Notes: generated by a model from the sequence alone, not told the origin. DNA of 64,000 nucleotides from Planctomycetia bacterium (GCA_036758585.1 DAIOWH010000001.1:98462-162461), one strand, 5' to 3'; shown: positions 20,078 to 49,790, numbered from the stretch's first letter. A program made the numbers and translations.

Positions 20078-20130
20078 ACGCGACAGAGTCTTGCCTCGGG
20101 GTGTTCCTGGGGCCGTGGAGATGGCAAACG

Positions 20131-29100: not shown

Positions 29101-31005
29101 ACCCCGAACGTCGGCGTAGGCCAGCGACCCTGGCTGGATATCGGCGGCGCTGAGTTGGTTGATCTTCGAACGGCGCTGCCACGCGTGGTGCGAATGAACC
29201 CAGTACCCGACACGAACTTCGACAACGGTCAGGGGCCGGGGCTGGTCGAACTGGAGTTCAGCGAACCAGTCACGGGCGTGGGCGCCACGACGATCTTTGT
29301 CGAGTCATCGGGCGGTGACGGCAGCTTCCTCGAGGGCAACGAGCAGCGTTTGGTCGGCGTTGTTTCCGCCTCGCCTGGGTCCAACAACACCCGATGGGTA
29401 TTCACCCCCTCCGGCGGCTCCTCGTTTAACGACTTCCAGAATGAGATCTTCCAGGTTACGGCGGTGGGCAGCGGCCCGAATCCAGTCAAGTCCATTGCAT
29501 CCGACGATGCTCTCGACGGGGAGTTCAACGGCGCCTTCCCCAGCGGCGATGGCATTGAGGGCGGCGACTTCGAGGCGACCTTCACCATCGGCGAAGTGGT
29601 CCTCAACGCCATCTACGTGGACGACACGTCGCCGCCTTGCAACAGCGTGCCTCGCAACGATCCGAACCTGGTGCTGGTGAACAGCATTCAAGCCGCCCTT
29701 GCCCAGGCCGGCGCGGGTAGCACCATCTTGGTCTGCCCCGGCGTATACACCGCCCCATTGCAGGTCACTTTCCCGGTCACGATCGAATCGCTCGAAGGTG
29801 CGCTGCCGCGCAAGAACCCGGACGGCTCGATCATCCAGGGCACGGGTACATTCATTACCGTCAACGGCGGCACAGCGGTTCAGTTCCTCAACGTCTCTGG
29901 TCAAACCACTGCTCGGCTCGGTCGAACACGCGGCGGCGCCAACCGCGGCTTTGTGATCTCGACGGCGCCCACGTCTGGCTCGCCGAACATTCAGCCCAGC
30001 GGCATAGGCATCGACGTACAGGCGAGTACGGTGGAAATCGAAGGGAACGTGATTGTGGCCACGACGATCGGCATCAACGTCGATTCTCAAGGCACCAATC
30101 GTATGCCGAACATCAGCAACAACCTGATTGCCGGCAACACCAGTGCGGGCATCGATGTCATTGGCCGCAGCCGCGACGCGGTGGCCAACATCGTCAACAA
30201 CACGATTGCGTTCAACAACAACGGTATTCTGGTCCGTGACGACGGAGTCGAGGCCGCGGGCCGTGTCGTCGCGAACGTCTACAACAACATCGTCACGAGC
30301 AACACGCTTGCCGGCATCAGCCAACTCGTGAAGTCGCGGCCCCTGATCAAGCACAATAACGTCTGGGGCAACGACCAAAACCGAGCGAACTTTAGCGGCA
30401 GTCTGACCAACTTGCCGCCGAGCTCATTCGACCCCGCTGGGAACCCGGTGCCCGACAGCGCCTGCGGACCGACGTCGACTAAGTGCGGTAACATCTCGGT
30501 CAATCCCTTGTTCGTGCGACCTGTTGATCCCGGCTCCGTTTCCGACCGCGCCGACTTCCTGCGGCTGGGCAACTTTACGCTTCAATCCGCATCGAAACTG
30601 ATCGACCGTGCGCTGGACGAAGTCGCGGTGATCCGTGACTTCAACGGAGTTACACGTACCGTCGATGTTCCGGACGTCGGTATCCCAGAGACGGACCCTG
30701 AGGCCAGTCCGCGCAGTGTGGACATCGGCGCGTTTGAGTTCGTGCCGTCGTCCGTGGCCGGCCGAACCGCGGAGCGCAGCCGGACGGCAGCGACGCCGAA
30801 GGCGGCGACGAGCCGGATTCATCCACGCGAAAGGGACCTCCTGGAGTTCGACCTGCACCGCGTCGGGGTCGGAGCAGAAGTCTCTGATTACCTGTTGCAA
30901 CAGGTAGGTACACTCGCGAGCGACCTGGAACGATTCAGCGACGAGTGGACGACGCTCATAGACTCTTGGCTCGACGATGAGGGAAGGGAGTTGCACACGC
31001 CGTAG
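20131..31005 (+). CDS. Giant multidomain extracellular protein 2 (about 3624 aa). VERLESRELLS N-motif. Tandem MopE-like Cys/Asp metal-binding repeats. Embedded metzincin-type Zn-metalloprotease motif HEAGHVLGQRH. Cys-containing FG-GAP-like repeats. Beta-helix repeats
   Basis: 10.9-kb ORF. The six-frame ORF begins at ATG 20101, but ATG 20131 (MTNATGKRF...) has GGAGA about 10 nt upstream and gives an N-terminus parallel to the other three giants. PPPPPPPVEVCGDNVDNDGDGQADEGCAPPPPPPVEVCGDNIDNDGDSRTDEDC is encoded at 20719-20850 as a direct ~60-bp DNA repeat. HExxHxxGxxH is encoded at 23260-23292. Repeats of VGNWCVDDPSTPAEIECEGVEFGLY / VGDFCVDDPTTAPVECPGDEIGLY / VGDWCVDDALTAAVECPGDEVGVV. The C-terminal third carries NNxI..N.. 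beta-helix repeats. Confidence 0.85.
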   Translation: MTNATGKRFGAARRLGRTRPTLRARHAGQVERLESRELLSSFAPVDAKFLWGAAGPTSLAQVWVNASGDCVGVSGPQMFLHEDCLLGEGAGPNRVVVQFNANIDKRSFNAASDVVVGGDLDPSNPFRVFGGTARRGLLTLFTTGGFSADDGSEMTLTIQGISSKGRKRTPAVVMDPWTVTLQVTPDPPPPPPPVEVCGDNVDNDGDGQADEGCAPPPPPPVEVCGDNIDNDGDSRTDEDCVVTPPDPRPSVSPGDITPPLVVGVSPTVDAVIGTLPTTISVAFSEPVDPTTLSTSSIRLFTSGGDGRFGDRADRPIATSGVTYNAAGRTAVLQLAETLGDEVYQIQVGGAHSIKDLAGNTLDGDRNALVGGLFTSEFQIDRSTPSFDLSLAPVANTGISTDETTSRQDHIGVTGQVSDGSLSRLGGYQVAMDVDGDGFDDGGAITDANGYFTVTSLAQIATSGRHDIDVRVTDRAGNSSVRTTTINVDADAPLLMPINLAERPDPNDYRITPAGHVVRLFDESPTELRIAVSENLAPGPARDLDNYRLERTGQLGLFSSPTALDLSSQISEARFDETTRQIVVTLASALADGEYQLVVRSHGTITDVAGNHPVSDGILGFYVGAYPAVRAFTPAVTPMTPDNVRQMPTVRSSSIEYYGRDGGSRSEQSTSFGSRSAGLARLTVNESETFGNSTNNPFDPQMPGTAEPIAGTTFPFGNFGVDQGEDPEAFIFGDIDSGLDVDVYSFRAKAGESVRFTLTDQFGFFPFGGEIAIIDLGTDNAVGGAGDAADRTLISNVHKFIDPDFAFFQLLDLSQIEITITGLTGRALDNPENELLNPLTSERRDPSDRTYLLRVDPFIGSYVISAEMWESFSRDTNQSQIVYVDFDGQEDVSFPNYFTGGTLSVDMPPFDIRDFGIDPIFQNQFIDTVMAAVREDFEQIRAEGINPAYNFQLRDSLWHPDPGNANNVLRVVVGGAGDLIGFQPSFGLAGIADALDTGNRQGNNVVLVFPSGLIDVAQIFGVAPLGFTPAQLDEIALETAATVSHEAGHVLGQRHTNQGLFQVDLVNNVFGCDPLTLDNIADASPLGFGDDLLHRFDRYLNMDDLFCQGRIEDYDGVADSGGVIAWGMEGRDTTPPRVLDIDVLPGQIKIAFDEGVDAATLINPNNVRLFRDDGNNDFQNGGTPVQLRPVTERQLTTSQADPCDGPTQLGVSLYDACTTTLTLDVSDPVNEIHKDKKYRLVLSGITDNPLNPLNPTNPRPNALDCELNRKPFTGAYVFPTGNGTPGCGDDAVFPGDSTNVFQFDFLATETVFVDGDYSADNGASTGLFAAPHTLLPQALQVAEYAGFLQPLVGEPEPVTVRVAPSIAPYRAVDPQLDSSFNDQPDQGSLFVPPRVNLVFDGRTDIVQSIFVVAPDPAAPADNPGTIYRVDANSPAGGNAVVLDRFFTPRPIPGGAGLAFDGSSLFLTQDAPGDDAVCDEIFTLDPFTGATRSIVTPRTASATGAATCPADATNIDGLAAAETLLFGVDATDERVVLLDRSNGTLVGSFVASFDLAGGIDFDATTNTLWAAGVVTDVADPLVGRRVIRQMNPVTGEVRNTVPLPAGSPSAEGLGLSGDRIFFSDVAGRNILELNEADPSASRSFAFALGAPVALAGPPRELVVTKLLGTRIEAFGEDASLSAIGKSVDEPVVFTSLRDTAFMGTGVSSALAGDWMGLVYRPDSADVLTDRLTPEYASVLENVLVRFGGGPGTIIPPVDPASQDPVRKFGVVQSLSPLNLFDARIKVENVEFSNNAEAAIAVTPNALERIQGKSGFELFWDVEPGAPIVGNWCVDDPSTPAEIECEGVEFGLYEATRRRVLVDANGNRELDEAEQSTAALGETDSVPVVGNFTPDIEGRDELAVFNRATGVWIVDVDRSFSETGADLLIEFGKHGDIPIVGDWGGTGTDKLGLYRPRPRTTDTECQMAALLPAACFVLDLNNNFRFDAGEDFNLTFDPDQDRLFGARTDVPVVGDFCVDDPTTAPVECPGDEIGLYRGTSGDFLLDRNANFFFDPGEQDTNGDGVEDSSEVKGVPNGQIDINDGPIVFGPLGGTPVVGDWCVDDALTAAVECPGDEVGVVDSSLKWIVDANGNLKQDELEVLVQFGKAGDVVAPGNWRGTRVGDEFGVFRPVEGTWTIDLVTLDPTRAEDPSEDIDLDRRLDRKEDANGNNTLDPGEDRDLDKRLDLDEDIDPDGIGPLLANGRLDLNDGPFVFSAARRNDISDFVFENSLNSVWVRPGLQTVSDAHWDDTQIPHVLTGTVEIQALPLLGVVPTLQMKPGMVVKMGLANLNVGGFGATLLVDSDLEIDQPRVVFTSLLDDERGPGSRPNDTNNDKGSLTPLPGDWGGIVLSSGTTAVINGAEIQYGGNLRVPAGTSLISPSPITLNQATCNLTGFFVLATTCDPVFATITNNIIANTNNLRNTSSPRTLPSDVAAIGAVGVSLLGLGPNTPRIPFNANPFIRGNDVSQNNGLNGLEIRTSEFQDPATAPLTFAHAHLFSESRWDDTDITHILLGTLQFVSSAAQFPQPFDIPDQTSFTNIEGFGLTLASNPIGFFDEFDGTVDGAAESLVVKFGGRLSNRYSLAAAFPGTVIDNGSFVGFPRQIGAGFNVGFDDGGANTPFQNFPWDSGGDSFITVQGILGDPERGVPASPVILTSVRDDTTGPRGVQEDTNNDGATTAPARGDWEGIHVGAWSRNAGRISPINGAPLSASSIRNADIRYANTAVLLQSQSIELEGNLIRNSNIAIDSLQGPNIPDVPMGVNPPPIPRDPASPIVYNNLLIENGIGYRQTGGPDNGNPLQESFPSRAVFVNNTVDANDAGLVIAQRSGPLIMNNAITNTVGTGLNADSSSLRLNLEASLQHDPPIQIVRNLFFGNGANGSTGTVPATVGGQEIVGLAPNYTSPGSPDYNYRPAPGSPLVDSALSEYGDVFGVYGLVEAPDRDRNGLFRRDHFGTPNVGVGQRPWLDIGGAELVDLRTALPRVVRMNPVPDTNFDNGQGPGLVELEFSEPVTGVGATTIFVESSGGDGSFLEGNEQRLVGVVSASPGSNNTRWVFTPSGGSSFNDFQNEIFQVTAVGSGPNPVKSIASDDALDGEFNGAFPSGDGIEGGDFEATFTIGEVVLNAIYVDDTSPPCNSVPRNDPNLVLVNSIQAALAQAGAGSTILVCPGVYTAPLQVTFPVTIESLEGALPRKNPDGSIIQGTGTFITVNGGTAVQFLNVSGQTTARLGRTRGGANRGFVISTAPTSGSPNIQPSGIGIDVQASTVEIEGNVIVATTIGINVDSQGTNRMPNISNNLIAGNTSAGIDVIGRSRDAVANIVNNTIAFNNNGILVRDDGVEAAGRVVANVYNNIVTSNTLAGISQLVKSRPLIKHNNVWGNDQNRANFSGSLTNLPPSSFDPAGNPVPDSACGPTSTKCGNISVNPLFVRPVDPGSVSDRADFLRLGNFTLQSASKLIDRALDEVAVIRDFNGVTRTVDVPDVGIPETDPEASPRSVDIGAFEFVPSSVAGRTAERSRTAATPKAATSRIHPRERDLLEFDLHRVGVGAEVSDYLLQQVGTLASDLERFSDEWTTLIDSWLDDEGRELHTP
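20719..20850 (+). repeat. Intragenic tandem coding repeat: two copies of a Pro-rich linker + C-x2-D-N-x-D-N-D-G-D-x3-D-E-x-C (MopE-like putative metal-binding motif) inside giant gene 2
   Basis: Near-identical ~60-bp DNA units (ccggtcgaggtctgtggggacaa[t/c]Ntcgacaacga[c/t]ggcgac...) seen directly in the sequence. A third divergent copy is in giant gene 3 at 35548-35598 (ICGDNIDNNGNGLVDEGC). Confidence 0.7.
23260..23292 (+). other. Metzincin-type zinc-binding signature HEAGHVLGQRH (HExxHxxGxxH) embedded in giant protein 2
   Basis: Directly read from the translation at about aa 1050 of the ORF. The downstream Met (YLNMDD) is a possible Met-turn. Confidence 0.6.
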
Positions 31006-31206: not shown

Positions 31207-31590
31207 TTGGAGGGTAGAAACTTGGCTAAGGAAACCAGTACAGCGGTCGAAGAACAACCAGCTCCTGCGGAACAGACCCAGCAGCCCGCTCGGGCCGTCC
31301 AAACCGAGGTGGTTGTAGACGAGGCCAGCGCCCACGCGGCCTATGCAAACTTCGCTCGGGTCACGGCGACCCCCGAAGAGGTGATCGTCGACTTCGCCCT
31401 GAACCCCCAGCCGTTCGCCACCGGTCGGCAAGAAGTCAAGGTCTCGCAGCGACTGATCATGAACTTCTACACCGCAAAGCGACTGTTGGGCGCGTTGCAG
31501 ATGACGATCCAACGCCACGAATCGGCGTTTGGCGCAATTGAGTTGGACGTACGGCGCCGGGCGAACATCCCAGCTACGGGCGCTCGCTAG
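31207..31590 (+). CDS. DUF3467-family small protein
   Basis: 127-aa ORF (TTG start in the track; the true start may be slightly downstream). YANFARVTATPEEVIVDFALNPQ...VSQRLIMNFYTAKRLLGALQ matches the DUF3467 pattern YSNLA.I.HS.SEFVLDF...R...TP.HAKRLL.AL recalled from Bacteroidetes/PVC proteins. Confidence 0.55.
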   Translation: MEGRNLAKETSTAVEEQPAPAEQTQQPARAVQTEVVVDEASAHAAYANFARVTATPEEVIVDFALNPQPFATGRQEVKVSQRLIMNFYTAKRLLGALQMTIQRHESAFGAIELDVRRRANIPATGAR

Positions 31591-32064: not shown

Positions 32065-32214
32065 TTCAGGATTCCGCACCGACCATCTGACGAGATTGAC
32101 GGACAGACCCAGGAAAACACGGCGACCCCACAGACCGCCTCCGGCGTTGACGGTTTGCCGTTTCGCCGATGTCTCAAGGACGGTCTGATTTCGGTTGGTG
32201 TAAGGAGAAAGAGG

Positions 32215-35200
32215 ATGCGCAAGGCAAGACTGAAGCCCCGAGGGACCGAACGAAACAAGTGTTTTCTCGGCGCGATCGAACGTCTCGAAGACCGTTGTTT
32301 GCTCGCACCAGTCATGGTGACGGGCACTTCCTATCAGCCGATGATCGGCTCCGCTACGTTTGCCGACGACGGGTTCGTCAGTTTCCGCTTGATCAGCACA
32401 CAGGCCGGCCGTATCGAAGCTGATCCCACAGGAGCGTTTGGCAACGATCTATTCGTTGTCTCACGGGGCACAGCCGTGGGGACCGGTGGGTTGGTTCCAT
32501 CGGGGGCGAACCCAGGCGACCTCGCGGGCAATATCTATCGCATCGACCCGTACGGCGCCAATGCGTTCGGCGCGTCGCCCGCGGACAACCGACGGCTCTT
32601 CGCGACCATTCCCGGCGGGGGCTCCTCGTTCGGTGGATACGAAGACTGGTTCGACATTGCGTTCGATTCTACCGGCAACTTCACCGGTAGCCCGTTGCTG
32701 AACGGCGCTGGCCCGACAATGTTCGTCAGTTCGTTGGACTCTACCACCACACCGGGAATCAACCCGCGCAACGCCATCTATGCGTTTCTGACCAATGGCG
32801 ACTTGGCGGCGCCGGCCGGCGTACCGCTGAATCCCGGACGGGTCACCGCGTTTTCGACCTTGGACGTCGTCCAACCAGGCATCCTGGACAGTCAAATCGG
32901 TGCGATCGCGGTGGCGCCGGGCGACACATTCGGCCGCGACCTGTATGTGCTCGACGTCGCATGCGATAACGCCGTGGGCGTCACCTGCGCCGCGGGCGAC
33001 GGCAACTCGATGTTCCGAGTCCGTCCCGTGCAGGCCGATCCGGTCGACCTTGATGCCTCGGCGCTTTTCAGCGGCCACGTAGAGGGCGTGTTGCCAACCT
33101 TGGCGCCCGCGCCAGCCAACAACGACATCGACGTACGAGCGATGGTGTTCGATCCTAACCGAGGCATCATCCTGCAAGGCCAGTTCGGTGGACCAGCGTT
33201 CCAGTTGTATGGCGGACTGTTCGTAGCGTCGAGTGACCTGGAGGCCAATGACACTGCGCTCACTCGCGTGCTGCATTTCCCGTCGCCTGGCTCGCCGCCC
33301 CTGGATGTCGTTGCTCCGGCGGCGATCGCCACTCGGCTGATCGGCGACATGACGTTCGATCCGGTTGGCTATTTCGGCGGCGGCCTCTTCTTCACGGACT
33401 ATATCAGTCGCTCGGTTCAACAAATCACGCAAGATCCGGCCACGGGGTTGGCGACGATCACTACGATAGCCAACAACTTCAACGTGTTGACGCCCACGGA
33501 CTTCACCGGTGTGACACCGCCTGGCGATGATCCGGCCGACGCCTATCGCGATGCCTTCTCCATTAGTTTCTCGGCCGACGGTGAGATCTTGTTCGTTTCC
33601 GACCGCGACGGCGTTTGGGCGTTCTACGCCAACACGCTAGCGCATTCTTCGTCCGGCACGGCGATCGGCCTTACCGACCTGCGCGAGCTGCGAGCGCCCT
33701 ATTCGGGCGAGGGCCTGGCGGCCGCCGTCGTCGACACCGGCGTCGACGGCGCCCACCTCGGATTCCGCGGCACGGTCACCGCCGGTTTCAACCCGGCGTT
33801 CCCCGGACCCGGCAACTTCGACACCAACGGCCACGGCACAGCCGTGGCCGGAATCATCCACCAGATGGCGCCGGGCGCGCTGGTCGTTCCGATCAACACG
33901 TTGGGCTTCGGTTTCACGAACCAGGACCTCTACAACTCCGTGCGCTTCGTCCGCGACAATCCGTTCGCCGACGACCCGCGCACCGCGGCCGTCGAGGCGG
34001 TTCCGATCGTCGCGGTCAACATGTCGCTAGGCATCCGTGGGCTCGGCGACCCCGACAACGCACTGGACAGCGATGCGGAGGCCGTGGCCACAGACCAGTC
34101 GATCGCCATCCCGCTCAAGGCCATCTTCCAGGACTATCGCACAGTGCACCCGCTCGGCATCGTGCCTGTGGGATCTGCGGGCAACGAAGGCGACCTGTTC
34201 AACGGTATGAGCGGCAGCATCATTCCATCGATTCTGAATGAAGTGGTGGAAGTGGGAGCAAGCTATCCGTTCGGGCCTGCCGTGGCCGGCACGGCAGGCA
34301 CAACGGCTTCGGGCCTGACGCCGCCGCTAAACTTGACGGGCAGCCTGCGCTGTCAGGTGTTGTCGACCGGCACGGCGCAGGATTTCATCGCCTTCCCGGG
34401 AAAGCTGGCGGCGTTTTCGAACCGGAACGTCACCACGGACATGATCGCCCCGGGCACATGCGTGAGTTCCTTCGGAGTATCCCTGTTTGACAGCTCGCTG
34501 GTCGCGTCGGCCCAGGCGGTGCGCACAGCTCCCATCATGCCAGCCTTTGACGGCACCTCGGCGTCGGCGCCCCTCGTGACGGGGAGTTTTCTGTTCGGCT
34601 ACGACGTTGTTGCGCAGTGGGCGGAAGTGCTCGGCGCCGGCGGCGCCATCGCACCCGACTCGGCCGACCAGACGATTCGCCGACTGAACCAGTACCTGAC
34701 GCGCGAGATTACCTTGCCGGGCGTGACGGCGCCGACCATCACGCTCGGCGGCGTCGTGCCAGCGAACATCGCGGAGTATCTGAATCCGGACGGCGTGAAT
34801 TCCATCCTGCAGTGGACGGCGATCCCACGTGAAGACGTGAACATCGGCGCGACGTTCGACGCGCCGGCCGGCGTCGATGACAGCGTGGAACAGGAACGGG
34901 CGTTCAACAGCCATCGCTATCGCGTCTATTCGCACGTAAACATCGCCAACGCGCTGGCCGCGGTGGAAGGGACGATCGCGCTGAACTTCTTCGTCGCCAA
35001 CCCGGCCGCCCTCGCCGCGCTCGACGCCGCCGCCGGCACGCCCGGACTGATCACCGCCGTGGACATCGACACGTTCGTGGCCGACCCGCTGCAATTGGCC
35101 AGCGCTCGCGCCATGGCCCGGCTGCTCGGCGGAACGGGCCGAGTCGCGCGGCTCAATCGGCTTGCGTACCTTGATCTCGTCCAAGACGCTGTGCAGAACG

Positions 35201-36636
35201 GCGGCATCTTCACGGCGACGATCGCCGATTTGGCCGACCGCTTGCTCCCAGAACCGACCGACTTCCGCATCACCGCTCGTGCGGCCAGTGCGGATATTCC
35301 ATACGCCCTGGACCCGACGGCGATTCGGGCCTACCAGGCGCTCAAGTTCCGACCGGACGACATCTTCCGCGGCATCACCAAGAAACTGCGCCGCATGTCG
35401 CCCGATGAATTCACGTTTGGCTCGCGCGGCGCCGCCGGACTGCGGCTGCTCCCAATCACGGGCGCCGATGAACGCAGAGTGATGCAACCACGGCTGAGTA
35501 TCGTCGGCCGGGCTGGCGACGTTCCGCCCCCGCCTATCGACGAAATCTGCGGCGATAATATCGACAACAACGGCAATGGCCTGGTGGACGAGGGCTGTCC
35601 GCCCCCGCCACCCCCGTCAACCGACGCCAGCAACAACTTCGTGGCGATGGACGAAGCCGGCGCCGAGTACATCTACAGCACCAACTCGATCGGCGACTTG
35701 CTGGAGTACGCGCGAGCAGCCGACGGAACGTGGTCGCTCACGAACGTCTCCGACGGCACCACCGCGCCGGACGTCTGCTGTGACTTGCTGGCCCTCGATC
35801 GGCCCGGCGGTTCCACTCGGACCGTCTTCGCGCTCGACGCCAACGGACACGTCGTGCGTTTCGACCGCAACGGCGAGTCGTGGTCGACCAGCGACATGAC
35901 CGGTCAGAACCTGCCGGCCCTGACGAACAGTCTTACGGGCTTGGTGATGCAGGTTCGCGGCGTTGAGTCTGTGCGGCTGTACGGTTTGAACGGCATAGGT
36001 CACCTCATCGAGTACCGTCCGGCGCGGGTTGGCTACATCGCTCGCGACGTCACCGCCGAGACGCGCGGCCCGATCCTGCAGCCGGGGCTGGCGAGTTGGG
36101 GCGAAACCGTTCGCAACAAGGACCGCATCTACGTCTACGGGGTCAGCGCCGCCGGCACGGTCGAGCAATACACCTGGACCGGCCGACGCTGGGTGCGACT
36201 GAACCTGACCGCGCTGGCCGGCGGCCCGGCGGTTGCAGCGGGAAGCTTGGCGGTTCCACCGCGTCCACCCACAGGCCGCGGCGCGGCGCCCGGCGTCTTC
36301 GCGCTCGACAACCAAGGCAGCCTGTGGCACTTCTTCGGGAGATGGGAGTCGGTGACCGCCGTGGCTGGCAGCGACGCGATTGTCGGTGAGCTGGCGGTTC
36401 AATACGACGCCACGGACGCAGTCTCACACGTGTACGGCCGCAATGCCCAGGGCGGGTTGGTGCGGCACAGTGGACGACTCGGCAGTTGGACGAGCGACGT
36501 ATTGGTGGACTCTGGCGTGGCTGCGGGCGCTGACTTGGCCGTCTCCACTGGCAACCAGGCGACATACGCCGAGCTGGTGGATGGCGCGCTGGCCGAGTTC
36601 TGGTTCGATGACGGATGGTCTCGCCTGCTCCAGTAG
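32215..36636 (+). CDS. Large extracellular subtilisin-like (S8) serine protease-domain protein (about 1473 aa) with IERLEDRCLL N-motif, MopE-like Cys/Asp motif and a C-terminal 7x Trp-containing propeller-like repeat domain
   Basis: The track start of 32155 is probably too long. ATG 32215 is preceded by AAGGAGAAAGAGG. Catalytic-triad motifs VVDTGVD (33727-33741), NGHGTAVAG (33826-33840) and GTSASAPLVTG (34552-34575). ICGDNIDNNGNGLVDEGC at 35548-35598. The C-terminal ~330 aa holds 7 repeats of the form VFALD..GHLI.Y...G.W....D.T. Confidence 0.85.
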   Translation: MRKARLKPRGTERNKCFLGAIERLEDRCLLAPVMVTGTSYQPMIGSATFADDGFVSFRLISTQAGRIEADPTGAFGNDLFVVSRGTAVGTGGLVPSGANPGDLAGNIYRIDPYGANAFGASPADNRRLFATIPGGGSSFGGYEDWFDIAFDSTGNFTGSPLLNGAGPTMFVSSLDSTTTPGINPRNAIYAFLTNGDLAAPAGVPLNPGRVTAFSTLDVVQPGILDSQIGAIAVAPGDTFGRDLYVLDVACDNAVGVTCAAGDGNSMFRVRPVQADPVDLDASALFSGHVEGVLPTLAPAPANNDIDVRAMVFDPNRGIILQGQFGGPAFQLYGGLFVASSDLEANDTALTRVLHFPSPGSPPLDVVAPAAIATRLIGDMTFDPVGYFGGGLFFTDYISRSVQQITQDPATGLATITTIANNFNVLTPTDFTGVTPPGDDPADAYRDAFSISFSADGEILFVSDRDGVWAFYANTLAHSSSGTAIGLTDLRELRAPYSGEGLAAAVVDTGVDGAHLGFRGTVTAGFNPAFPGPGNFDTNGHGTAVAGIIHQMAPGALVVPINTLGFGFTNQDLYNSVRFVRDNPFADDPRTAAVEAVPIVAVNMSLGIRGLGDPDNALDSDAEAVATDQSIAIPLKAIFQDYRTVHPLGIVPVGSAGNEGDLFNGMSGSIIPSILNEVVEVGASYPFGPAVAGTAGTTASGLTPPLNLTGSLRCQVLSTGTAQDFIAFPGKLAAFSNRNVTTDMIAPGTCVSSFGVSLFDSSLVASAQAVRTAPIMPAFDGTSASAPLVTGSFLFGYDVVAQWAEVLGAGGAIAPDSADQTIRRLNQYLTREITLPGVTAPTITLGGVVPANIAEYLNPDGVNSILQWTAIPREDVNIGATFDAPAGVDDSVEQERAFNSHRYRVYSHVNIANALAAVEGTIALNFFVANPAALAALDAAAGTPGLITAVDIDTFVADPLQLASARAMARLLGGTGRVARLNRLAYLDLVQDAVQNGGIFTATIADLADRLLPEPTDFRITARAASADIPYALDPTAIRAYQALKFRPDDIFRGITKKLRRMSPDEFTFGSRGAAGLRLLPITGADERRVMQPRLSIVGRAGDVPPPPIDEICGDNIDNNGNGLVDEGCPPPPPPSTDASNNFVAMDEAGAEYIYSTNSIGDLLEYARAADGTWSLTNVSDGTTAPDVCCDLLALDRPGGSTRTVFALDANGHVVRFDRNGESWSTSDMTGQNLPALTNSLTGLVMQVRGVESVRLYGLNGIGHLIEYRPARVGYIARDVTAETRGPILQPGLASWGETVRNKDRIYVYGVSAAGTVEQYTWTGRRWVRLNLTALAGGPAVAAGSLAVPPRPPTGRGAAPGVFALDNQGSLWHFFGRWESVTAVAGSDAIVGELAVQYDATDAVSHVYGRNAQGGLVRHSGRLGSWTSDVLVDSGVAAGADLAVSTGNQATYAELVDGALAEFWFDDGWSRLLQ

Positions 36637-36750
36637 CGACGAACGTCAGACCCGCCTCGGGTTCGACCGGGGCGCAAGTGGGGCGTAGTACGACGGATGC
36701 AATGGATTGCCCGTGAGTGTGATACTTCGTGTGAAGTGGAGGCGATAAAC

Positions 36751-39700
36751 GTGTCGACGCCAAAGAGAAACCGAGGCCGGCTGACATTTCGGGCCGGTGT
36801 GGAACGCCTCGAAGTTCGCGAACTGCTCACCAGCACGTTCCTCGAGGGCCTTGCGGCGGCTGATTCGGCCGGGACCGCGCTGGCGCCGCTAGGAAACATC
36901 TTTGACGACGCACCGGCCAGCCTGGTCGGTGCGGATTTCGCGATTGGAGCGCCGCTCGCGAGCGCCCGCGCGGGCGAGGTTTACGTCGTCTTCGGACACG
37001 CAGGACTTGACACCGCCACGCTCAACGGATGCCTCACGCCGCTGCCTGTCAGTCCGCGCGGGCCGAATTGCGAGCTGATCAACAACTTGCTCACAACACA
37101 GCGCGCGATTCGTATCGTCGGCGATTCGGCCGACGACCTGGCGGGCTATTCGGTGGCAGGGGTTGGCGACGTGGTCGGCGACTCGCGCCCCGACCTGCTG
37201 ATCGGCGCGCCGTTCGCGCGGAACGGAGCCGCAGTGCAGACGGGTCGCGCGTACCTGATCGGCGGCGACTACATCGCCAACGTGATCGGCACGGCCCGCG
37301 CGGCGGGCGGCGCCGCTGTCGGCACCATCGATCTCGGCTCACCCGCATTGGGAGCGACCTTCCGCATCATCGAAGGCGAGTCGGCCGACGACCAGATGGG
37401 TAACGGCGTCGCAGGCATAGGCAACGGATTCTTCATGACCAGCTCGCCGTTGTTTGGCGCCGCGCCTTTCGAGGACCGCGGCAAAGTTTACGTTTTCGGC
37501 GGCTTGCGCGGCATTGCCGGACCGGGCGCCGCGCTGGTGCCACTGGCGACCGTCGTCGGTCCATCGGACGGCGCACACCTGGGCGGGGTACCCGCCGAAG
37601 AACTGACCACAACAGGGTTCAAGGGCCAAGCGATCTCGCCGCTACGCAACCCAGCGCTCATTCCGGTCGCCAGCGAATCACCGAGCGACCGGCGTTACCG
37701 CGTGCTCAGTACAACGTCGCCCGATGTGTTGTTGGGCGCGCCCGACGCCTGCACGGTCAACACCTGTACGCCGGCCACAGCCGTGCGACACGGCCGTGCC
37801 TACCTGCTTTCGGGAACCCAACTGATCGGCGTTGGCGGAAACTTCGACCTCTCAGTCCAAGCGGACTTGCAGGCGCTTGAGGCGATCATCGTACAGGGTG
37901 GGTCACCGAACGATCGACTCGGCGCGGCCGTCAGCAGCGCGGGCGACTTCGACGGCGACTTCGACATCGACACGACCGGCGACGGACTCCCGGACGGCAA
38001 GAGCGACTTCATGTTCGCCTCTCCGGGGCGCGATGTGACCCAGAGTGGCCTGACCGAGACCGATGCCGGCGAAGTGTATCTGATCTTCGGACGCGAGGTG
38101 AACGGTACTCCATTCCCCGACGGTAGCTGCCAAAGCGACCCGGGCATTGTCGGCGTACCGCAGATGAACTTCCGACAGTGCCGCGACGCCGCTGGCAACA
38201 TCGTGCCGCTCACCGCGACTAACTTCGTGGTGGCTGGGAACCTGACTGGCCTGACGCTGCGCGGCGCCACCACAACAGAACAACTAGGTACGTCCCTGAG
38301 CGAAGGTGGAAACTTCAGCGATCCGACCGGCAGAGGCAGCGCGGGCTTGTCGGGTCAGGTCGGCGTCAGCGACATTCTGGTCGGTGCGCCGTTCCACGAC
38401 GTACGCACCGGCGCCGTCACGGTGCTGGCCGACGCTGGCCGCGCGTACGGCATGTTCGGCAGTCGTGACTATCGCACCATCTCCGGCCAACTGCGCGACC
38501 TGGAACTGATCGGCGCCACCGGCGAGGGGATCATCTTCAACGGCCGTTTCGCGGGCGACAACTACGGCATCGCCGTGGCCGCCGCTGGTAACGTGGGCGA
38601 CCCCACCGGGCTGATTGGCGACGATGTACTGTTCGGCGCACGCAACGCCGAGGCCGTTCTGGGCGGCGCGGCAACAAACAACGTCGGGGAAGTCGAGTTG
38701 TTGTTTGGGTCGACTTCAGGGGCCGCCGGAGCGGGTGGGGTCGTCTCACTGCTCCCCTTTGTGCAGCCTGGGACATTTGGACCGCAGATTTTTGCCGGTG
38801 GATACTGGTCGTTCATCAACCAGACCCCGCCGGCCGGCAGCGTGAATCAGTTCCCGCTCGTGGCGAGTCAGCCGAGCGACGACCTGTTGTTCCCGCCGTT
38901 CACGCCCAGCATCCTGCCCGCCGGCGCGGTGGGGCCGTTCATTCCCGCTACGCTGCGCGGCTCGACGATCTTCTTGCCCGATCGGCCGCTCGCGCTGGTC
39001 GATCGTTCGGGCAACCTGAACGTCTACGATCGTGCCAGCGGCGACCGCGGCGTCAACGTCACCGCGTCCGCGCGAGGACCCAGGATTCGAGCTGGAGCCG
39101 TTGCCAGCGCCGCCGACGGCGCAACCAGTGTGTTCGCACTCGATCAGGCCGGACACCTAATTCACCACCGCGGCAACGGCACAAGCTGGTCGGCGACCGA
39201 CCTGACGCAAGGCTCCAGTGGACCCAGCCTCACCGGCAACCTCGCGGTGCGGCGCATCGACGGCGCGAACGATTCGTTCGTGATCAGCGGCCGGGCCGCA
39301 TCCGGCGGCGTCGCCGTCTACGCGGGCAACGATTCCGACGGCTGGCGGTCCGCCGTGTTTACGCCGCCCGGCGGCGCCGGCGCATCGACGGCCGTGACGC
39401 CACCCACACTCAGCGCGAACTATGTGGTCGGCAGCAACGGGCACCTGATCGAGTACATGCCGTCGCGGCGCAAGTGGCGGACAACGGACATCAGCGCGGC
39501 GGCCGGCGGACCTCAGCTTGCCGGCGACGTCGCGGCCAACGTTGTGCTCGGCGGCCCGCTTCGCGCCGTGCTCGAAGTGTTTGCGCGAAGCGTCGATGGA
39601 CGCCTCATCCGTTTCACGCGAGCCGGGCGGAGCTGGCAGTTCGAGGACATCAGCGAGCGGCTGGCCGGCGCGGGCGCCATCGACGGTTCGATGATCGTCG

Positions 39701-40011
39701 TGCCCGGTTCGCTGGGTCAGCGGTTCATCTACGCACAGTCAGGCGGCCGTATCGTTGAAGTCGCAGGCGACGGCGCCGGTTGGCGAGTGCAGGAACTTCC
39801 GGCGGTGGACGGCGTAGCCTCGATGGTCGGCCCGATCGCCGCGATGCCGACCAATGGCAACTCACGTGTCGTCTACGGTTACGAATCGGGCGGCTCGGTT
39901 GTCGAGTACAGCTTCAACGGAACTTGGACCACACGCTCGTTCTCAAGCGACGCCACGGCGCTGGGCGCATTGCTCGACCTACTGACTGACTTGGGTGTCC
40001 AAAGCCGCTAG
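36751..40011 (+). CDS. FG-GAP (integrin-alpha-like) repeat protein (about 1087 aa) with VERLEVRELLT N-motif and the same C-terminal Trp-containing propeller-like repeats as the preceding gene
   Basis: The probable start is GTG 36751 (VSTPKRNRGRL...), 8 nt after GGAGG. The track start 36697 is an upstream in-frame extension. FG-GAP units (GADFAIGAPLASARAGEVYVVFG; DLLIGAPFARNGAAVQTGRAYLIGG; ..DFMFASPGRD..GEVYLIFG). C-terminal repeats GHLIHHRGNGTSWSATDLT / GHLIEYMPSRRKWRTTDIS / GRLIRFTRAGRSWQFEDIS. Confidence 0.8.
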   Translation: MSTPKRNRGRLTFRAGVERLEVRELLTSTFLEGLAAADSAGTALAPLGNIFDDAPASLVGADFAIGAPLASARAGEVYVVFGHAGLDTATLNGCLTPLPVSPRGPNCELINNLLTTQRAIRIVGDSADDLAGYSVAGVGDVVGDSRPDLLIGAPFARNGAAVQTGRAYLIGGDYIANVIGTARAAGGAAVGTIDLGSPALGATFRIIEGESADDQMGNGVAGIGNGFFMTSSPLFGAAPFEDRGKVYVFGGLRGIAGPGAALVPLATVVGPSDGAHLGGVPAEELTTTGFKGQAISPLRNPALIPVASESPSDRRYRVLSTTSPDVLLGAPDACTVNTCTPATAVRHGRAYLLSGTQLIGVGGNFDLSVQADLQALEAIIVQGGSPNDRLGAAVSSAGDFDGDFDIDTTGDGLPDGKSDFMFASPGRDVTQSGLTETDAGEVYLIFGREVNGTPFPDGSCQSDPGIVGVPQMNFRQCRDAAGNIVPLTATNFVVAGNLTGLTLRGATTTEQLGTSLSEGGNFSDPTGRGSAGLSGQVGVSDILVGAPFHDVRTGAVTVLADAGRAYGMFGSRDYRTISGQLRDLELIGATGEGIIFNGRFAGDNYGIAVAAAGNVGDPTGLIGDDVLFGARNAEAVLGGAATNNVGEVELLFGSTSGAAGAGGVVSLLPFVQPGTFGPQIFAGGYWSFINQTPPAGSVNQFPLVASQPSDDLLFPPFTPSILPAGAVGPFIPATLRGSTIFLPDRPLALVDRSGNLNVYDRASGDRGVNVTASARGPRIRAGAVASAADGATSVFALDQAGHLIHHRGNGTSWSATDLTQGSSGPSLTGNLAVRRIDGANDSFVISGRAASGGVAVYAGNDSDGWRSAVFTPPGGAGASTAVTPPTLSANYVVGSNGHLIEYMPSRRKWRTTDISAAAGGPQLAGDVAANVVLGGPLRAVLEVFARSVDGRLIRFTRAGRSWQFEDISERLAGAGAIDGSMIVVPGSLGQRFIYAQSGGRIVEVAGDGAGWRVQELPAVDGVASMVGPIAAMPTNGNSRVVYGYESGGSVVEYSFNGTWTTRSFSSDATALGALLDLLTDLGVQSR

Positions 40012-40093: not shown

Positions 40094-41662
40094 TTACTGG
40101 CCGAATCCGCCACCCGCAGCACCGGTGACTTGGAAACGACGCTCGCCGGCCAGTGAGTTGAACTGCGGAAACACGTTGAGGCGAACGTAACGTCGATCCG
40201 CGGAGATCACCGCCTGAGCGGTAAATCCGGCGCCGAAGAAGAAGGGCGTAATGGTCGGATTGAAAGCTACCGCCCCGCCGCCGACCGCCCCGCCGAATTG
40301 GAAGAGGTGCTGCGGCCCGCCGTAGGGGCCGGCTCGCCCGCCCGGATCGCCGGCCGACGTCCGATCGGACAGCCCCATCAGTTCTTGGATCGGCAGTCGG
40401 CCCGACGATGCGACGCCCACGCCTGGCGGAACGTATTGCGGAATCGCCAGCAGTCCGGTGCGTCGGCCGGTTTCGAGTTTCACTAACAGCGGCTTGGTCG
40501 CGCCGAGCGGAACGTAGAACGTGTCGTGCTTCTCGTCCGGCGAACCCTCGTGATACGTCACTTCAACCTTGACGCGGCCGCCGAGCGGACTGCCCCAAAC
40601 GCGGTCCACACGAATCTCGTAGTCACCGGGCAGCGCGCGGGCACAAACGTAAAGCTCAGCCGTGTTCTTGGCCGACCCCGCGTCCTTGCCGAAGCTGTCG
40701 CGGACCAGCACGCCGCCGGCGCCCGTAACTCGATTCTGTGCACAGCAGACCGTGCCGGGCGGCTCGACTACTCGCAGGTCGATGTCGGCGTCGCCCTGCC
40801 AGCCAATGCGCACGACCAGGTCGCGCGTGTCGGCCCGCCGAACCTGTTCGACCAGCGCATCAGCTTCGGATGTGCGGCCGGCGCGGCGCAGCTTGTTCTC
40901 GACGTCGGCGGCTTGGCTGCGGGCCTTCTTGTGCAGTTCGTCCTGCACGTTCACCCAACCGTGCGCGAGCAGGTGCGAAGCAGCCCACGCCACAGTGCGG
41001 CCATCGACAAGCTCGGCGGCCAGGTCCAGACTCTCCAGGTAGGGTTCCGGCGCGAGCGGCACTTTCTCGGAGGCCTCGCGATAGAGTCGAATCGCGGCCT
41101 CCTTTAGACCATGTCGCGCGAGTCGTCGAGCGACACGGTACTGGGCGTCGGGTGAGTCGGAGACGACATCGGCCGCGGAGAGCAGAGTTCGTTGGATCTC
41201 CTGCTTGTCGGCGCCGGTAGCCTCTTGAAGTAGCGCGAGCGACTCGTACATCCACGGCTCGTTGAAGCCGTGCCGAATGGCAGCCTTGAGCAGCGCGACG
41301 CCGTGATCGGGTTTCTTGGACTTGACCAGAACCTCAAGGGCGGCGCGAACGCCGGCCGAAGATTCCTTGTGTTGCGCAAAGTGCCGATCCCAGACAACCT
41401 CGGGGTCGAGGTCCGCCTTGGACGAACGGGCTGGGTTGGTCGGTGCGGCGTCCCTCGCCTGTTTCTGCCGGGCCTTCGGCTCATCGTCCTGGGAGCCGAG
41501 CCCGGCCGCTAAAAAGGGCTTACGTTTCTCAGGCCGTTCGCGCGACGCGATTGGTCCAGCACGCCGCCGATTTGCTCGTGGATTTCTGATGTCTGTCTGA
41601 TGACCAGGGCCGGGTTCCGACGCCAGTAACGGATCGAGCCTTCGCCACCGCGCACGTCCCAC
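40094..41662 (-). CDS. Hypothetical protein (helical repeat N-half, beta-rich C-half ending in a Gly-rich tail). 5' end uncertain
   Basis: 522-aa ORF. Its first ~51 codons overlap the 3' end of the upstream VWA gene (stop at 41509) in another frame, so the true start is probably an internal or alternative codon near 41500. No family recognised. Confidence 0.45.
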   Translation of the reverse strand: MGRARWRRLDPLLASEPGPGHQTDIRNPRANRRRAGPIASRERPEKRKPFLAAGLGSQDDEPKARQKQARDAAPTNPARSSKADLDPEVVWDRHFAQHKESSAGVRAALEVLVKSKKPDHGVALLKAAIRHGFNEPWMYESLALLQEATGADKQEIQRTLLSAADVVSDSPDAQYRVARRLARHGLKEAAIRLYREASEKVPLAPEPYLESLDLAAELVDGRTVAWAASHLLAHGWVNVQDELHKKARSQAADVENKLRRAGRTSEADALVEQVRRADTRDLVVRIGWQGDADIDLRVVEPPGTVCCAQNRVTGAGGVLVRDSFGKDAGSAKNTAELYVCARALPGDYEIRVDRVWGSPLGGRVKVEVTYHEGSPDEKHDTFYVPLGATKPLLVKLETGRRTGLLAIPQYVPPGVGVASSGRLPIQELMGLSDRTSAGDPGGRAGPYGGPQHLFQFGGAVGGGAVAFNPTITPFFFGAGFTAQAVISADRRYVRLNVFPQFNSLAGERRFQVTGAAGGGFGQ

Positions 41663-44259: not shown

Positions 44260-44392
44260 AAGTGACTCGCGAAACCGTCCAACCGGGGCAAATTGCCAAG
44301 TTTGTGAACCTATTGTAGCGGCGGCCTCAAGTAATCTTCCAGCACGAATTTCGGCTGCGGTCGCCGTCCGCCGTTAGATCGGGATTACTCCA

Positions 44393-44554
44393 CATTGAAA
44401 GAGGTTCGTTTAACCTCGTTTAACCCGCAGCCGCAGGCGAGGTGAGGCACAACAACGCCAGCCGTACCTCGCCTGCGGCTGCGGGTTAAACGACCGAGGC
44501 GGATTTCAGACCCTATTCAATGCGGCACAGTACTTAGCGGCACAGTACTTAGTC
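44393..44554. repeat. Palindromic intergenic repeat element, copy 2 (same orientation and loop as copy 1; carries small internal tandem duplications)
   Basis: Core stem arms at about 44419-44443 and 44468-44491. Duplicated cgtttaacc and gcggcacagtacttag units. Lies upstream of the VWA gene and downstream of the PP2C gene. Confidence 0.8.
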
Positions 44555-44733
44555 GTCGGCTCGCCCGCGGGATTCACGGCCAGAGTGGCCCGCGGCCCGC
44601 AGGGTTCAGAGTGGTCGCAAGGAGTATAGCCCGACCCGACGCGGATAGCAACTTGTTGACGCGGTTGATGTAAGGGCCGACCGTAAGGATACGCCGCTGA
44701 TTGATCGCCCAAACTGGCGTGAATCTTCTGGCG

Positions 44734-47174: not shown

Positions 47175-47358
47175 GGCAAGTTGCTCGTTCCGAGAGAAGT
47201 AGACCCACTGTAGATGGTCAACACGCGGAGGATTCTAGCGGGATCGTCCGCGAATGTCAGAGCCAAAGTATAAGTCGACGCACGGCGGAGTCATCTGAGT
47301 ACAGGACGCCAACGTGAATTGTCGGCAAGGCGAGCCATTGGTAAGAATGGATCGACGC

Positions 47359-47432
47359 GCGCCCGTAGCTCAACCGGATAGAGCAGCGGATTTCTAATCC
47401 GCCGGTTGCAGGTTCGACTCCTGCCGGGCGTA
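47359..47432 (+). tRNA. tRNA-Arg (anticodon TCT)
   Basis: Manual cloverleaf: acceptor GCGCCCG/CGGGCGT (G1-U72 wobble), D-arm GCTC-aaccggata-GAGC, anticodon arm GCGGA-tTtCTAa-TCCGC, variable loop cggtt, T-arm GCAGG-TTCGAct-CCTGC, discriminator A. CCA is not encoded. Confidence 0.85.
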
Positions 47433-47441
47433 CTTGGCTGG

Positions 47442-49748: not shown

Positions 49749-49790
49749 CTGGGTCCTGCACGATTTCGGTCGGGGCGGGCCGCTGCGAAC

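Follow-up and report, generated by a model that had tools for sequence, protein, structure and literature searches.

The C-terminal domains of two neighbouring genes, here termed genes 3 and 4, in a 64,000-nucleotide stretch of DNA from a Planctomycetia bacterium (GCA_036758585.1, DAIOWH010000001.1:98462-162461; hereafter the window) are, as modelled with AF2, seven-bladed beta-propellers with four strands per blade. The propeller is not a new fold but belongs, as a divergent member, to the propeller-lectin superfamily, i.e. to the group that includes AAL, RSL and KozL (PropLec6A), PLL and PHL (PropLec7A), and BP39L and CV39L (PropLec7C). The overall explanation that we favour, and hold to be fairly probable, is that this divergent seven-bladed lectin-superfamily propeller serves as a ligand-binding targeting module on both proteins.

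The two proteins and their genomic setting

Gene 3 (32215-36636, + strand) is an open reading frame encoding 1473 residues, identical to database protein P0151, with which its ATG start at 32215 agrees, the longest ORF running from 32155. Gene 4 (36751-40011, + strand) encodes 1086 residues identical to P0001, again with an agreeing start (GTG, 36751), within an ORF from 36697. In every source the family to which the two proteins belong is a 'hypothetical protein' or unnamed, and nothing relevant was found in literature on Planctomycetes with FG-GAP, subtilisin or giant genes, or on DUF3467.

The gene 3 product is a large, secreted-type protein in which an N-terminal region is followed by an S8 protease domain, a linker and the C-terminal propeller. 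The Peptidase S8 (subtilase) catalytic domain (33706..34590, + strand; Pfam Peptidase_S8 E 3.2e-15) scores 56.7 bits versus a Pfam cut-off of 21.8, and its catalytic residues, D507, H540, N657 and S782 (+ strand; Asp 33733, His 33832, Asn ~34183, Ser 34558), are invariant in 9/9 orthologues, with the oxyanion Asn lying within AGNEG at 34177. The original prediction was right that the triad is complete, but the DTG and HGT motifs lie at 33733 and 33832, rather than at 33727 and 33826; likewise, it placed the Ser motif correctly at 34552, but the motif, which it gave as GTSxAxP, reads GTSASAP (34552-34572), i.e. the kexin-like GTSxSxP. A search with full-length gene 3 returned 15 relatives, all of which have Peptidase_S8. 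Directly before the propeller there is a Cys-rich acidic motif, CGDNIDNNGNGLVDEGC, and then a poly-Pro linker (35548..35619, + strand); the motif gives sub-threshold matches to Cu-binding_MopE (Pfam E 0.32) and to an acidic double-disulfide repeat (NCBIfam E 0.053). Gene 4 encodes an FG-GAP (integrin-alpha-like) protein ending in the same propeller as gene 3, the FG-GAP match in its N-terminal part extending over three stretches (Pfam E 1.4e-10, 41.2 bits versus a cut-off of 22.1).

Genes 3 and 4 had themselves been described as giants, and their repeat as common to the gene cluster, neither of which is the case: the true giants are two upstream genes encoding Big_5/beta-helix, adhesin-like proteins of 5934 and 3634 residues that lack the propeller, which is carried by genes 3 and 4 only, no propeller repeat being found in any other ORF of the window. 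A DUF3467 gene (31207..31590, + strand; 127 residues; Pfam DUF3467 E 6.6e-23) separates the S8 gene from the second giant gene and is a member of the conserved gene order considered below.

Repeats, fold and family of the C-terminal domains

The gene 3 propeller spans 35635..36633 (+ strand), with blades 1-4 at 35665-35799, 35818-35955, 35968-36108 and 36124-36261, and blades 5-7 at 36289-36408, 36424-36549 and 36559-36633; blade 7 is short and is probably completed by the strand NFVAMD (35635), which would close the ring. The gene 4 propeller (38977..39948, + strand), assigned from its model, Foldseek matches and homology to the gene 3 domain, has blades 1-4 at 38986-39117, 39124-39261, 39274-39405 and 39412-39552, and blades 5-7 at 39568-39708, 39718-39852 and 39862-39948. 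Each domain contains seven Trp-containing repeats, with the conserved Trp residues being 43-53 residues apart. Direct comparison of the two domains (BLASTP 4e-12, phmmer 6e-14) confirms the proposal of a shared seven-repeat C-terminal domain, the domains being homologous with E of about 1e-12 to 1e-14; the several out-of-register alignments obtained are as expected because of the internal repeats. The two propellers share only 25% identity and belong to separate clades, each of which includes orthologues from other genomes, and we therefore reject both a recent duplication and gene conversion as their origin.

The G+C content of the window (60-67%), and the finding that at least 8000 unrelated Ala/Gly-rich candidates swamped word-indexed searches with the domain, raise the question of whether the repeats simply reflect chance or the composition of a G+C-rich, Ala/Gly-rich reading frame, with no folded domain. 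We regard the likelihood of this as negligible, and the reading is refuted by several types of evidence. When a single-repeat HMM was built from gene 4 alone, it detected seven repeats in gene 3 (76 bits) and, in the reverse test, an HMM from gene 3 detected six repeats in gene 4 (97.5 bits), whereas the top scores among 200 shuffles of either C-terminal region were 9.0 and 7.5 bits. In addition, an exhaustive HMMER search with a profile built from the two window domains only retrieved 382 proteins at E <= 1e-3, and both the AF2 models and the profile-profile comparison described below are confident.

The AF2 models of the propellers have pLDDT values of 87 (gene 3) and 78 (gene 4; pTM 0.76), and in both proteins bear out the expectation that the repeats form a seven-bladed beta-propeller. 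Both match seven-bladed lectins best; in Foldseek searches against the PDB, ranks 1-36 for the gene 3 model and 1-45 for the gene 4 model are all propeller lectins, with the gene 4 model matching PLL4/PLL5 at E 8e-11 and TM 0.65-0.72.

As originally proposed, the repeats do not match WD40, Kelch or RCC1; on either C-terminal domain the Pfam HMMs for these families, and for PQQ, give no match at E <= 1, and a lone Kelch_1 match (E 0.33) falls within the FG-GAP region of gene 4. Lectin models are similarly silent: no Pfam or NCBIfam lectin model matches the window proteins even at E <= 1, including Fungal_lectin (PF07938; hmmscan with the full proteins and both C-terminal domains), nor does the DUF346 (PF03984) repeat HMM at the same threshold. 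The proposal that the family is uncharacterised was nevertheless wrong, because profile searches link the repeats to members of Fungal_lectin (AAL type) and DUF346 (PLL type); as the search reaches a well-known family, the repeats are not unclassifiable. Among 63 retrieved homologues scanned with Pfam at E <= 0.01, Fungal_lectin is present in 25 and DUF346 in 10 (P0024, P0006 and P0015 being among the latter), and all seven of the Fungal_lectin/DUF346 matches inspected singly were above the gathering score. Alignment of the window-family profile using hhalign with four bacterial proteins that pass the PF07938 gathering score gave a probability of 99.5% (E 9e-23, 324 columns), and PDB sequence profiles matched KozL (6htn; 8.6e-7), FleA (4e-6) and AAL (1.4e-3).

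A narrower profile gave summed sub-threshold matches to the designed PQQ-type propellers 'Cake' and 'Scone', implying that part of the sequence signal is a generic propeller signal, and PQQ_2 is present in 3/63 of the scanned homologues. Since the matches are only summed sub-threshold ones to idealised designs, we rejected PQQ/BamB as the main propeller type of the domain.

Putative binding sites and relationship to known propeller lectins

PropLec6A (AAL, FleA/AFL, AOL, SapL1, RSL, BambL, KozL; PF07938), the members of which come from sources including Aleuria aurantia (AAL), Aspergillus (FleA/AFL), Ralstonia (RSL) and Kordia (KozL), is the closest family by sequence. Each blade in both PropLec6A and the window propellers has a hydrophobic-Y strand, a G-H-x-x-E-aromatic strand and a G-W strand, and the Glu and Trp used in the PropLec6A binding clefts between blades are both conserved in the window repeats. 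PropLec6A proteins, however, are stand-alone lectins with six blades, whereas the window propellers have seven and are C-terminal modules of proteins of 1086 and 1473 residues; because of the difference in blade number, the Foldseek TM values of the window models to PropLec6A are only 0.52-0.59.

The seven-bladed PropLec7A lectins (Photorhabdus PLL, PLL2-5 and PHL; PF03984) are closer in shape, the window propellers being superimposable on PLL/PHL. Two conserved Trp residues in the PLL blades form a hydrophobic site, to which a second ring of polar sites is added (PMC12203525). The window blades, in contrast, have one conserved Trp and lack the PLL-type hydrophobic site; a second Trp occurs only in gene 3 blades 4, 5 and 7, with a spacing different from that in PLL. 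The PropLec7C lectins BP39L (Burkholderia pseudomallei) and CV39L (Chromobacterium violaceum), stand-alone lectins for L-fucose and mannose (PMC11186620), also have seven blades and a fold similar to that of the window propellers; in PDB profile searches with three alignments neither was found at E <= 10 (identity 11-14%). PropLec6A and PropLec7C are the only families with a 'CRD repeats' arrangement (PMC11186620), a grouping that fits the window domain, which is 6A-like in sequence and 7C-like in shape.

The inter-blade fucose sites of AAL-type lectins employ an Arg/Glu/Trp triad (PMC8352872). In an alignment with FleA, the conserved Glu and Trp of the window repeats correspond to the triad Glu and the stacking Trp, whereas most window blades have lost the triad Arg as well as the first Trp. 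In gene 3, Arg is present in 1/7 blades, Glu in 3/7 (plus one Gln), the first Trp in 1/7 and the stacking Trp in 6/7; the corresponding values for gene 4 are 1-2/7, 3/7, 0/7 (one Phe) and 6/7. A hydrophobic or small residue replaces the triad Arg in six of seven gene 3 blades and in at least five of seven gene 4 blades, blade 7 being ambiguous. On inspection of the sequences, only one complete or near-complete triad site was found per propeller. In gene 3 this AAL-like constellation lies at blades 3/4 and comprises Arg (VRLYG), Glu (HLIEY), Trp (YTW) and Trp (RRW); in gene 4 it lies at blades 6/7, with Arg (QRFIY), Glu (RIVEV), Phe and Trp. Among 13 S8-family sequences the complete gene 3 site is confined to the window protein and its 82% relative P0152, and, for the gene 4 site, only the four closer of 7 FG-GAP orthologues retain the Arg and Glu. 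With the triad left in only one inter-blade site per propeller, sugar binding is inferred rather than shown, and the residue pattern suggests that the propeller is probably of low valency, or has changed its ligand from fucose to another one.

These substitutions bear on a different reading, which we consider possible but rather unlikely, in which sugar binding has been lost and the propeller acts as a protein-protein docking platform for a multi-protein surface complex, with the upstream giant Big_5/beta-helix proteins, the DUF3467 protein or the other propeller as partners. The degenerate fucose triad in most blades is consistent with docking, as are the mostly structural nature of the conserved propeller residues (Gly, Trp, Leu), the weak PQQ/BamB-type matches, and strict co-inheritance with DUF3467 together with the presence of a giant gene in three related clusters. 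However, all of the nearest relatives, whether judged by sequence or by structure, bind carbohydrates, one AAL-like Arg/Glu/aromatic/Trp constellation is left in each window propeller, and two loci (L003 and L005) retain the S8/FG-GAP pair without a neighbouring giant gene.

We favour a ligand-binding, most likely glycan-binding, targeting module, in which, by analogy with AAL and PLL, ligands would be bound in the inter-blade clefts. Homologous propellers are fused to Peptidase_A4, Peptidase_C70/C39_2, fn3 and PhoD_N, and such fusion to other enzymes, which is usual for binding modules, supports this interpretation. P0013 (Peptidase_A4 and Fungal_lectin) and P0020 (Fungal_lectin and Peptidase_C70/C39_2; retrieved by the two-sequence window profile at 1.2e-16) resemble gene 3 in combining an AAL-type propeller with a protease. 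They differ in that their proteases are of classes other than S8, their propellers are above the Pfam threshold, and they are without the Planctomycetota N- and C-terminal motifs described below; P0020, at least, keeps the RVYY...E...W...W triad pattern, unlike the window propellers.

Terminal motifs, gene order and implications

The N-terminal motif ERLExRxLL is common to genes 1 to 4, occurring in gene 3 as ERLEDRCLL (32278..32304, + strand), where it was seen in the sequence preceded by a basic stretch, and is present in every S8 and FG-GAP orthologue with an intact N terminus. The N terminus has no obvious hydrophobic signal-peptide core, and Pfam gives no match at E <= 10 for the first 60-80 residues encoded by each of genes 1 to 4. 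At the other end of gene 4, alignments define a 20-residue tail, DATALGALLDLLTDLGVQSR (39949..40008, + strand), which is a low-confidence helix in the AF2 model and likewise has no Pfam match at E <= 10; its pattern, LLDLLxDLGxxSR-COOH, is conserved in the FG-GAP orthologues and most S8 orthologues.

Conservation of the tail at the extreme C terminus, the N-terminal motif common to both families, and the invariably C-terminal location of the propeller in both raise the prospect that propeller and tail constitute a module for export or for surface sorting/anchoring that is specific to this Planctomycetota lineage, comparable in role, though not in sequence, to C-terminal sorting domains known from other phyla. 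This appears very improbable to us, because gene 3 of the window, P0166 and P0152 all keep the propeller without the tail, homologous propellers in other proteins occupy N-terminal or internal positions or stand alone, without either terminal motif, and the N-terminal motif also occurs in the two giant genes, which have no propeller and no tail; moreover, known sorting-signal models (NCBIfam, Pfam) give no match.

The order DUF3467, S8-propeller, FG-GAP-propeller is found at four Planctomycetota metagenomic loci (L001/L002, which are on one contig, L004, L005 and L006). L003 has the S8 and FG-GAP pair without DUF3467, with FG-GAP repeats fused onto the S8 protein, and at both L003 and L005 there is no giant gene adjacent to the pair; a giant gene is present in three of the related gene clusters. 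A genome scan with full-length alignment identified three Planctomycetota MAG loci only. The pairing of S8 and FG-GAP propellers is thus conserved, and the S8-type and FG-GAP-type propellers form two clades that branch in parallel, implying that the pair is old and co-inherited.

The occurrence of paired genes with paralogous propellers beside giant adhesin-like genes suggests delivery of both proteins to one glycan-bearing surface. On the targeting-module reading, the S8 protease and the integrin-like FG-GAP protein would both be retained by their propellers on one carbohydrate-bearing surface, candidates for which are the cell's own envelope, the glycosylated upstream giant proteins, and an external polysaccharide or prey surface, where the two may act side by side. 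A more elaborate proposal, which we consider improbable, is that propeller, tail and ERLExRxLL motif together form a Planctomycetota-specific export/surface-display system in which the lectin-derived propeller tethers both the protease and the integrin-like protein to the glycan coat of the cell itself, there to process or organise the upstream giant adhesin-like proteins. If this were true, the Planctomycetota, a phylum with a poorly understood envelope biology, would possess a novel type of module for assembly at the cell surface.

The overall results enable annotation of a previously unnamed family as containing a lectin-type seven-bladed propeller that is missed by current Pfam and NCBIfam models, and extend the AAL/PLL/BP39L superfamily into the Planctomycetota, as a C-terminal module of large multidomain proteins. 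The combination of PropLec6A-like sequence with a PropLec7-like blade number bridges classes between which a distinction is usually drawn. Confirmation of sugar binding could make the domain a lead for new lectin specificities; failing that, the family would illustrate the recruitment of a lectin fold to a different binding function.

S8 and FG-GAP genes and their terminal repeats

Two neighbouring, co-inherited genes encode an S8 protease with intact catalytic residues and an integrin-like FG-GAP protein, both of which terminate in a paralogous, lectin-type seven-bladed propeller. The genes are co-directional on the + strand. Gene 3 (ORF 32155-36636; the ATG at 32215 is the start in the 100% identical database copy P0151, 1473 aa) contains a Peptidase_S8 domain (Pfam, E 3.2e-15), and gene 4 (ORF 36697-40011; the GTG at 36751 is the start in the database copy P0001, 1086 aa) contains FG-GAP repeats (Pfam, E 1.4e-10). 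The catalytic motifs assigned to gene 3 in the original prediction are present, with DTG (Asp, 33733) and HGT (His, 33832) each lying 6 nt beyond the coordinates first proposed; together with the oxyanion Asn (AGNEG at 34177) and the catalytic Ser (GTSASAP at 34552, a kexin-like GTSxSxP variant), also on the + strand, they supply four residues that are unchanged across nine S8 orthologues. Neither gene is a giant, as both had been called; the giants are the two upstream + strand genes, gene 1 (2273-20077, 5934 aa) and gene 2 (20101-31005, 3634 aa).

Seven repeats terminate each protein, comprising a hydrophobic-Y/F strand, a G-(H)-L-I-E-Y strand, a G-x-W-x-x-x-D-h-T strand and then a G-P...h-A-h strand, with a conserved Trp spacing of 43-53 residues. 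The predicted homology of the repeats between the two genes is borne out by direct comparison of the C-terminal domains (BLASTP 4e-12, phmmer 6e-14), which can also be aligned out of register by whole repeats, and by one-repeat HMMs: that built from gene 4 only picks out seven gene 3 repeats (76 bits), and the reverse finds six in gene 4 (97.5 bits). The best scores from 200 shuffles of each C-terminal region were 9.0 and 7.5 bits, and a compositional artefact is excluded as the source of the repeats. No other window ORF carries the repeat, with all frames searched, and the domain is therefore common to genes 3 and 4 only, not to the whole cluster as had been suggested.

Fold and superfamily of the propeller

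AlphaFold2, using an alignment of 14 rows (the gene 3 domain together with those of twelve S8 orthologues and of gene 4), gave an all-beta model for the gene 3 domain (mean pLDDT 87.1, pTM 0.87); when the gene 4 domain headed this alignment, the result was a gene 4 model (pLDDT 77.7, pTM 0.76) with a low-confidence helix over the final 19 residues. In Foldseek searches of the PDB, the top 36 matches of the gene 3 model and the top 45 of the gene 4 model are all propeller lectins, among them the seven-bladed PHL and PLL2-5 from Photorhabdus (E about 1e-10, TM 0.72-0.77), the six-bladed AAL, FleA, AOL, SapL1, AofleA and RSL (TM 0.5-0.6) and, for gene 4, BP39L and CV39L. The anticipated seven-bladed propeller is thus supported, specifically as one of the lectin type.

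The domain is not recognised by any Pfam or NCBIfam model. A profile of the two window domains alone, run through an exhaustive HMMER search, returned 382 proteins at E <= 1e-3, of which 61 reach E <= 1e-10; at E <= 0.01, Pfam Fungal_lectin (PF07938, the AAL family) was present in 25 of the 63 matches scanned and DUF346 (PF03984, the PLL family) in 10, the gathering score being exceeded in all seven of the Fungal_lectin/DUF346 matches inspected individually. Profile-profile comparison of the window-family profile (A4) with four bacterial proteins passing the Fungal_lectin threshold (A6) gave a probability of 99.5% (E 9e-23, 324 columns). Sequence-profile searches of the PDB found KozL (6htn) with alignments A1 (0.011; FleA and AAL not listed, no other relevant match), A3 (8.6e-7, with FleA at 4e-6, AAL at 0.19 and AOL at 1e-3) and A4 (1.1e-4, with FleA at 0.24 and AAL at 1.4e-3); A4 also matches the designed PQQ-type 'Cake' at 3e-7, from summed sub-threshold repeats.

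Within the PropLec classification (PMC11186620), the domain is closest in sequence to PropLec6A (the AAL type), whereas its blade number and shape agree with PropLec7A (PLL/PHL) and PropLec7C (BP39L/CV39L). Several features that define each class are missing, and it is therefore filed as a divergent form, with seven blades, within the propeller-lectin superfamily and outside any single class. The proposal of an uncharacterised family does not hold, both fold and superfamily being already known, which lowers its novelty.

PropLec6A sites combine an Arg/Glu/Trp triad with hydrophobic contacts to fucose C6 (PMC8352872). On alignment with FleA and the bacterial Fungal_lectin repeat (RVYY..GHVxEFxW.GGxW..DLT), the Glu and last Trp are seen to persist in the window repeats, whose Arg and first Trp are usually replaced. 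By inspection, gene 3 has Arg in 1/7 blades, Glu in 3/7 (plus one Gln), the first Trp in 1/7 and the stacking Trp in 6/7 (plus one Tyr); the gene 4 values are 1-2/7, 3/7, 0/7 (one Phe) and 6/7. One complete constellation lies between blades 3 and 4 of gene 3 and is found in 2 of 13 S8-family sequences (that of the window and P0152, an 82% relative), and a near-complete one lies between blades 6 and 7 of gene 4, its Arg and Glu being retained in the closer four of seven FG-GAP orthologues. The two-Trp-per-blade signature of PLL (PMC12203525) is missing. With the triad mostly lost and this signature missing, we therefore infer carbohydrate binding only tentatively, as a reasonable reading of ancestry, and the ligand may be other than fucose. 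Beside these replacements and the few retained sites we weigh a propeller that became a protein-docking module after loss of sugar binding, which we regard as unlikely, albeit deserving of consideration.

Gene order, ancestry and terminal motifs

The relatives found in genome collections are Planctomycetota MAGs. In the window the genes run giant, giant, DUF3467 (31207-31590, +, 127 aa; Pfam 6.6e-23), S8-propeller, FG-GAP-propeller; the DUF3467 gene is equivalently placed in four related Planctomycetota loci, and the order of the last three genes recurs in L004, L005, L006 and L001/L002 (the last two being the same contig). Upstream of the S8 gene, L001, L004 and L006 have a giant Big_5/NosD/DUF1565-type gene (> 4000 aa). 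Locus L003 keeps the pair without DUF3467; its S8-propeller protein (P0161, GCA_026991575.1, 10001-16171, 2056 aa) has fused N-terminal FG-GAP repeats and still precedes a separate FG-GAP-propeller gene, a fusion that links the two families functionally. The FG-GAP neighbour carries a full propeller in L003, L004, L005 and L006. In L001 (14651-19267, 1538 aa, beside P0002) its FG-GAP module is tandemly duplicated and it ends after about two blades, which may reflect truncation or decay, or a gene-call or assembly problem.

The window's two propellers are 25% identical. In a neighbour-joining tree, indicative only given low identities and no bootstrap, S8-attached and FG-GAP-attached propellers form separate clades with parallel internal branching, which suggests, from sequence comparison, an old duplication and joint inheritance of the pair.

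Several other features of the region were observed. The window giants (2273-31005, +) contain Big_5, CopC-like, Big_13, NosD/beta-helix and DUF1565 domains, the second with an HExxH-like segment, HEAGHVLGQRH. Downstream, the - strand genes at 40094-54500 are apparently unrelated to the propellers (a TPR protein, a 916-aa VWA/TPR/STN-domain protein, a SpoIIE-type phosphatase, a HAMP protein, a GH2 glycosidase and a 1569-aa ThuA/DUF7133/cytochrome c protein). In ENA ERZ27245623 contig k141_49934 (L010), a called Amidase_2 gene (186-695, 169 aa) lies ~300 bp upstream of the gene for a protein identical to gene 3; no window ORF is listed at the corresponding coordinates, and strain variation, different gene calling or chimeric assembly could account for the discrepancy. 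The gene 3 propeller is preceded (35548-35619, +) by an acidic, Cys-rich stretch, CGDNxDNDGDGxxDExC, with a poly-Pro run after it, and gene 2 contains two further copies of the motif close to its N-terminus (about 20680-20830). The motif has sub-threshold matches to Cu-binding_MopE and an acidic double-disulfide repeat and resembles a linker or metal-binding module that the two proteins share.

The products of the four consecutive large + strand genes all start with a basic segment and then ERLExRxLL (regions 2273-2400, 20101-20280, 32278-32304 and 36802-36828; FLERLESRELLS, VERLESRELLS, IERLEDRCLLA and VERLEVRELLT in genes 1-4), with no obvious hydrophobic signal-peptide core. The motif matches no Pfam model, is found in every S8 and FG-GAP orthologue with an intact N-terminus and is missing from the remaining roughly 140 propeller homologues; it may be a lineage-specific export signal. 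After its propeller, gene 4 has a C-terminal tail (39949-40008, +; consensus roughly LLDLLxDLGxxSR-COOH), modelled by AlphaFold2 only as a low-confidence helix. The tail is conserved at the ends of the L003-L006 FG-GAP genes and in P0153, P0155, P0002, P0156 and P0008, S8 orthologues having versions such as SLLISLALASR and RLIELAMATR; gene 3 and its near relatives P0166 and P0152 have no tail, stopping right at the end of blade 7. A lineage-specific role of the propeller in sorting or anchoring, with this tail taking part, we consider improbable.

Proposed role and significance

We favour the propellers as targeting modules, which would bring the S8 protease and the FG-GAP protein to one ligand-bearing, probably glycan-bearing, surface. 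A modular binding role is supported by the fusion of homologous propellers to other proteases and enzymes (Peptidase_A4, Peptidase_C70/C39_2, fn3, PhoD_N). In P0013 (Peptidase_A4) and P0020 (Peptidase_C70/C39_2), the fused propeller is of the AAL type and scores above the Fungal_lectin cut-off of Pfam. The guidance of proteases by lectins may be an architecture that recurs in bacteria. New here is a seven-bladed form with AAL-like sequence that is missed by every curated model. Large Planctomycetota proteins use it as a C-terminal module, it recurs as a conserved pair on a protease and an FG-GAP protein, and terminal motifs accompany it; these three features are likewise new. For annotation the result is useful, and biologically it offers a modest lead.
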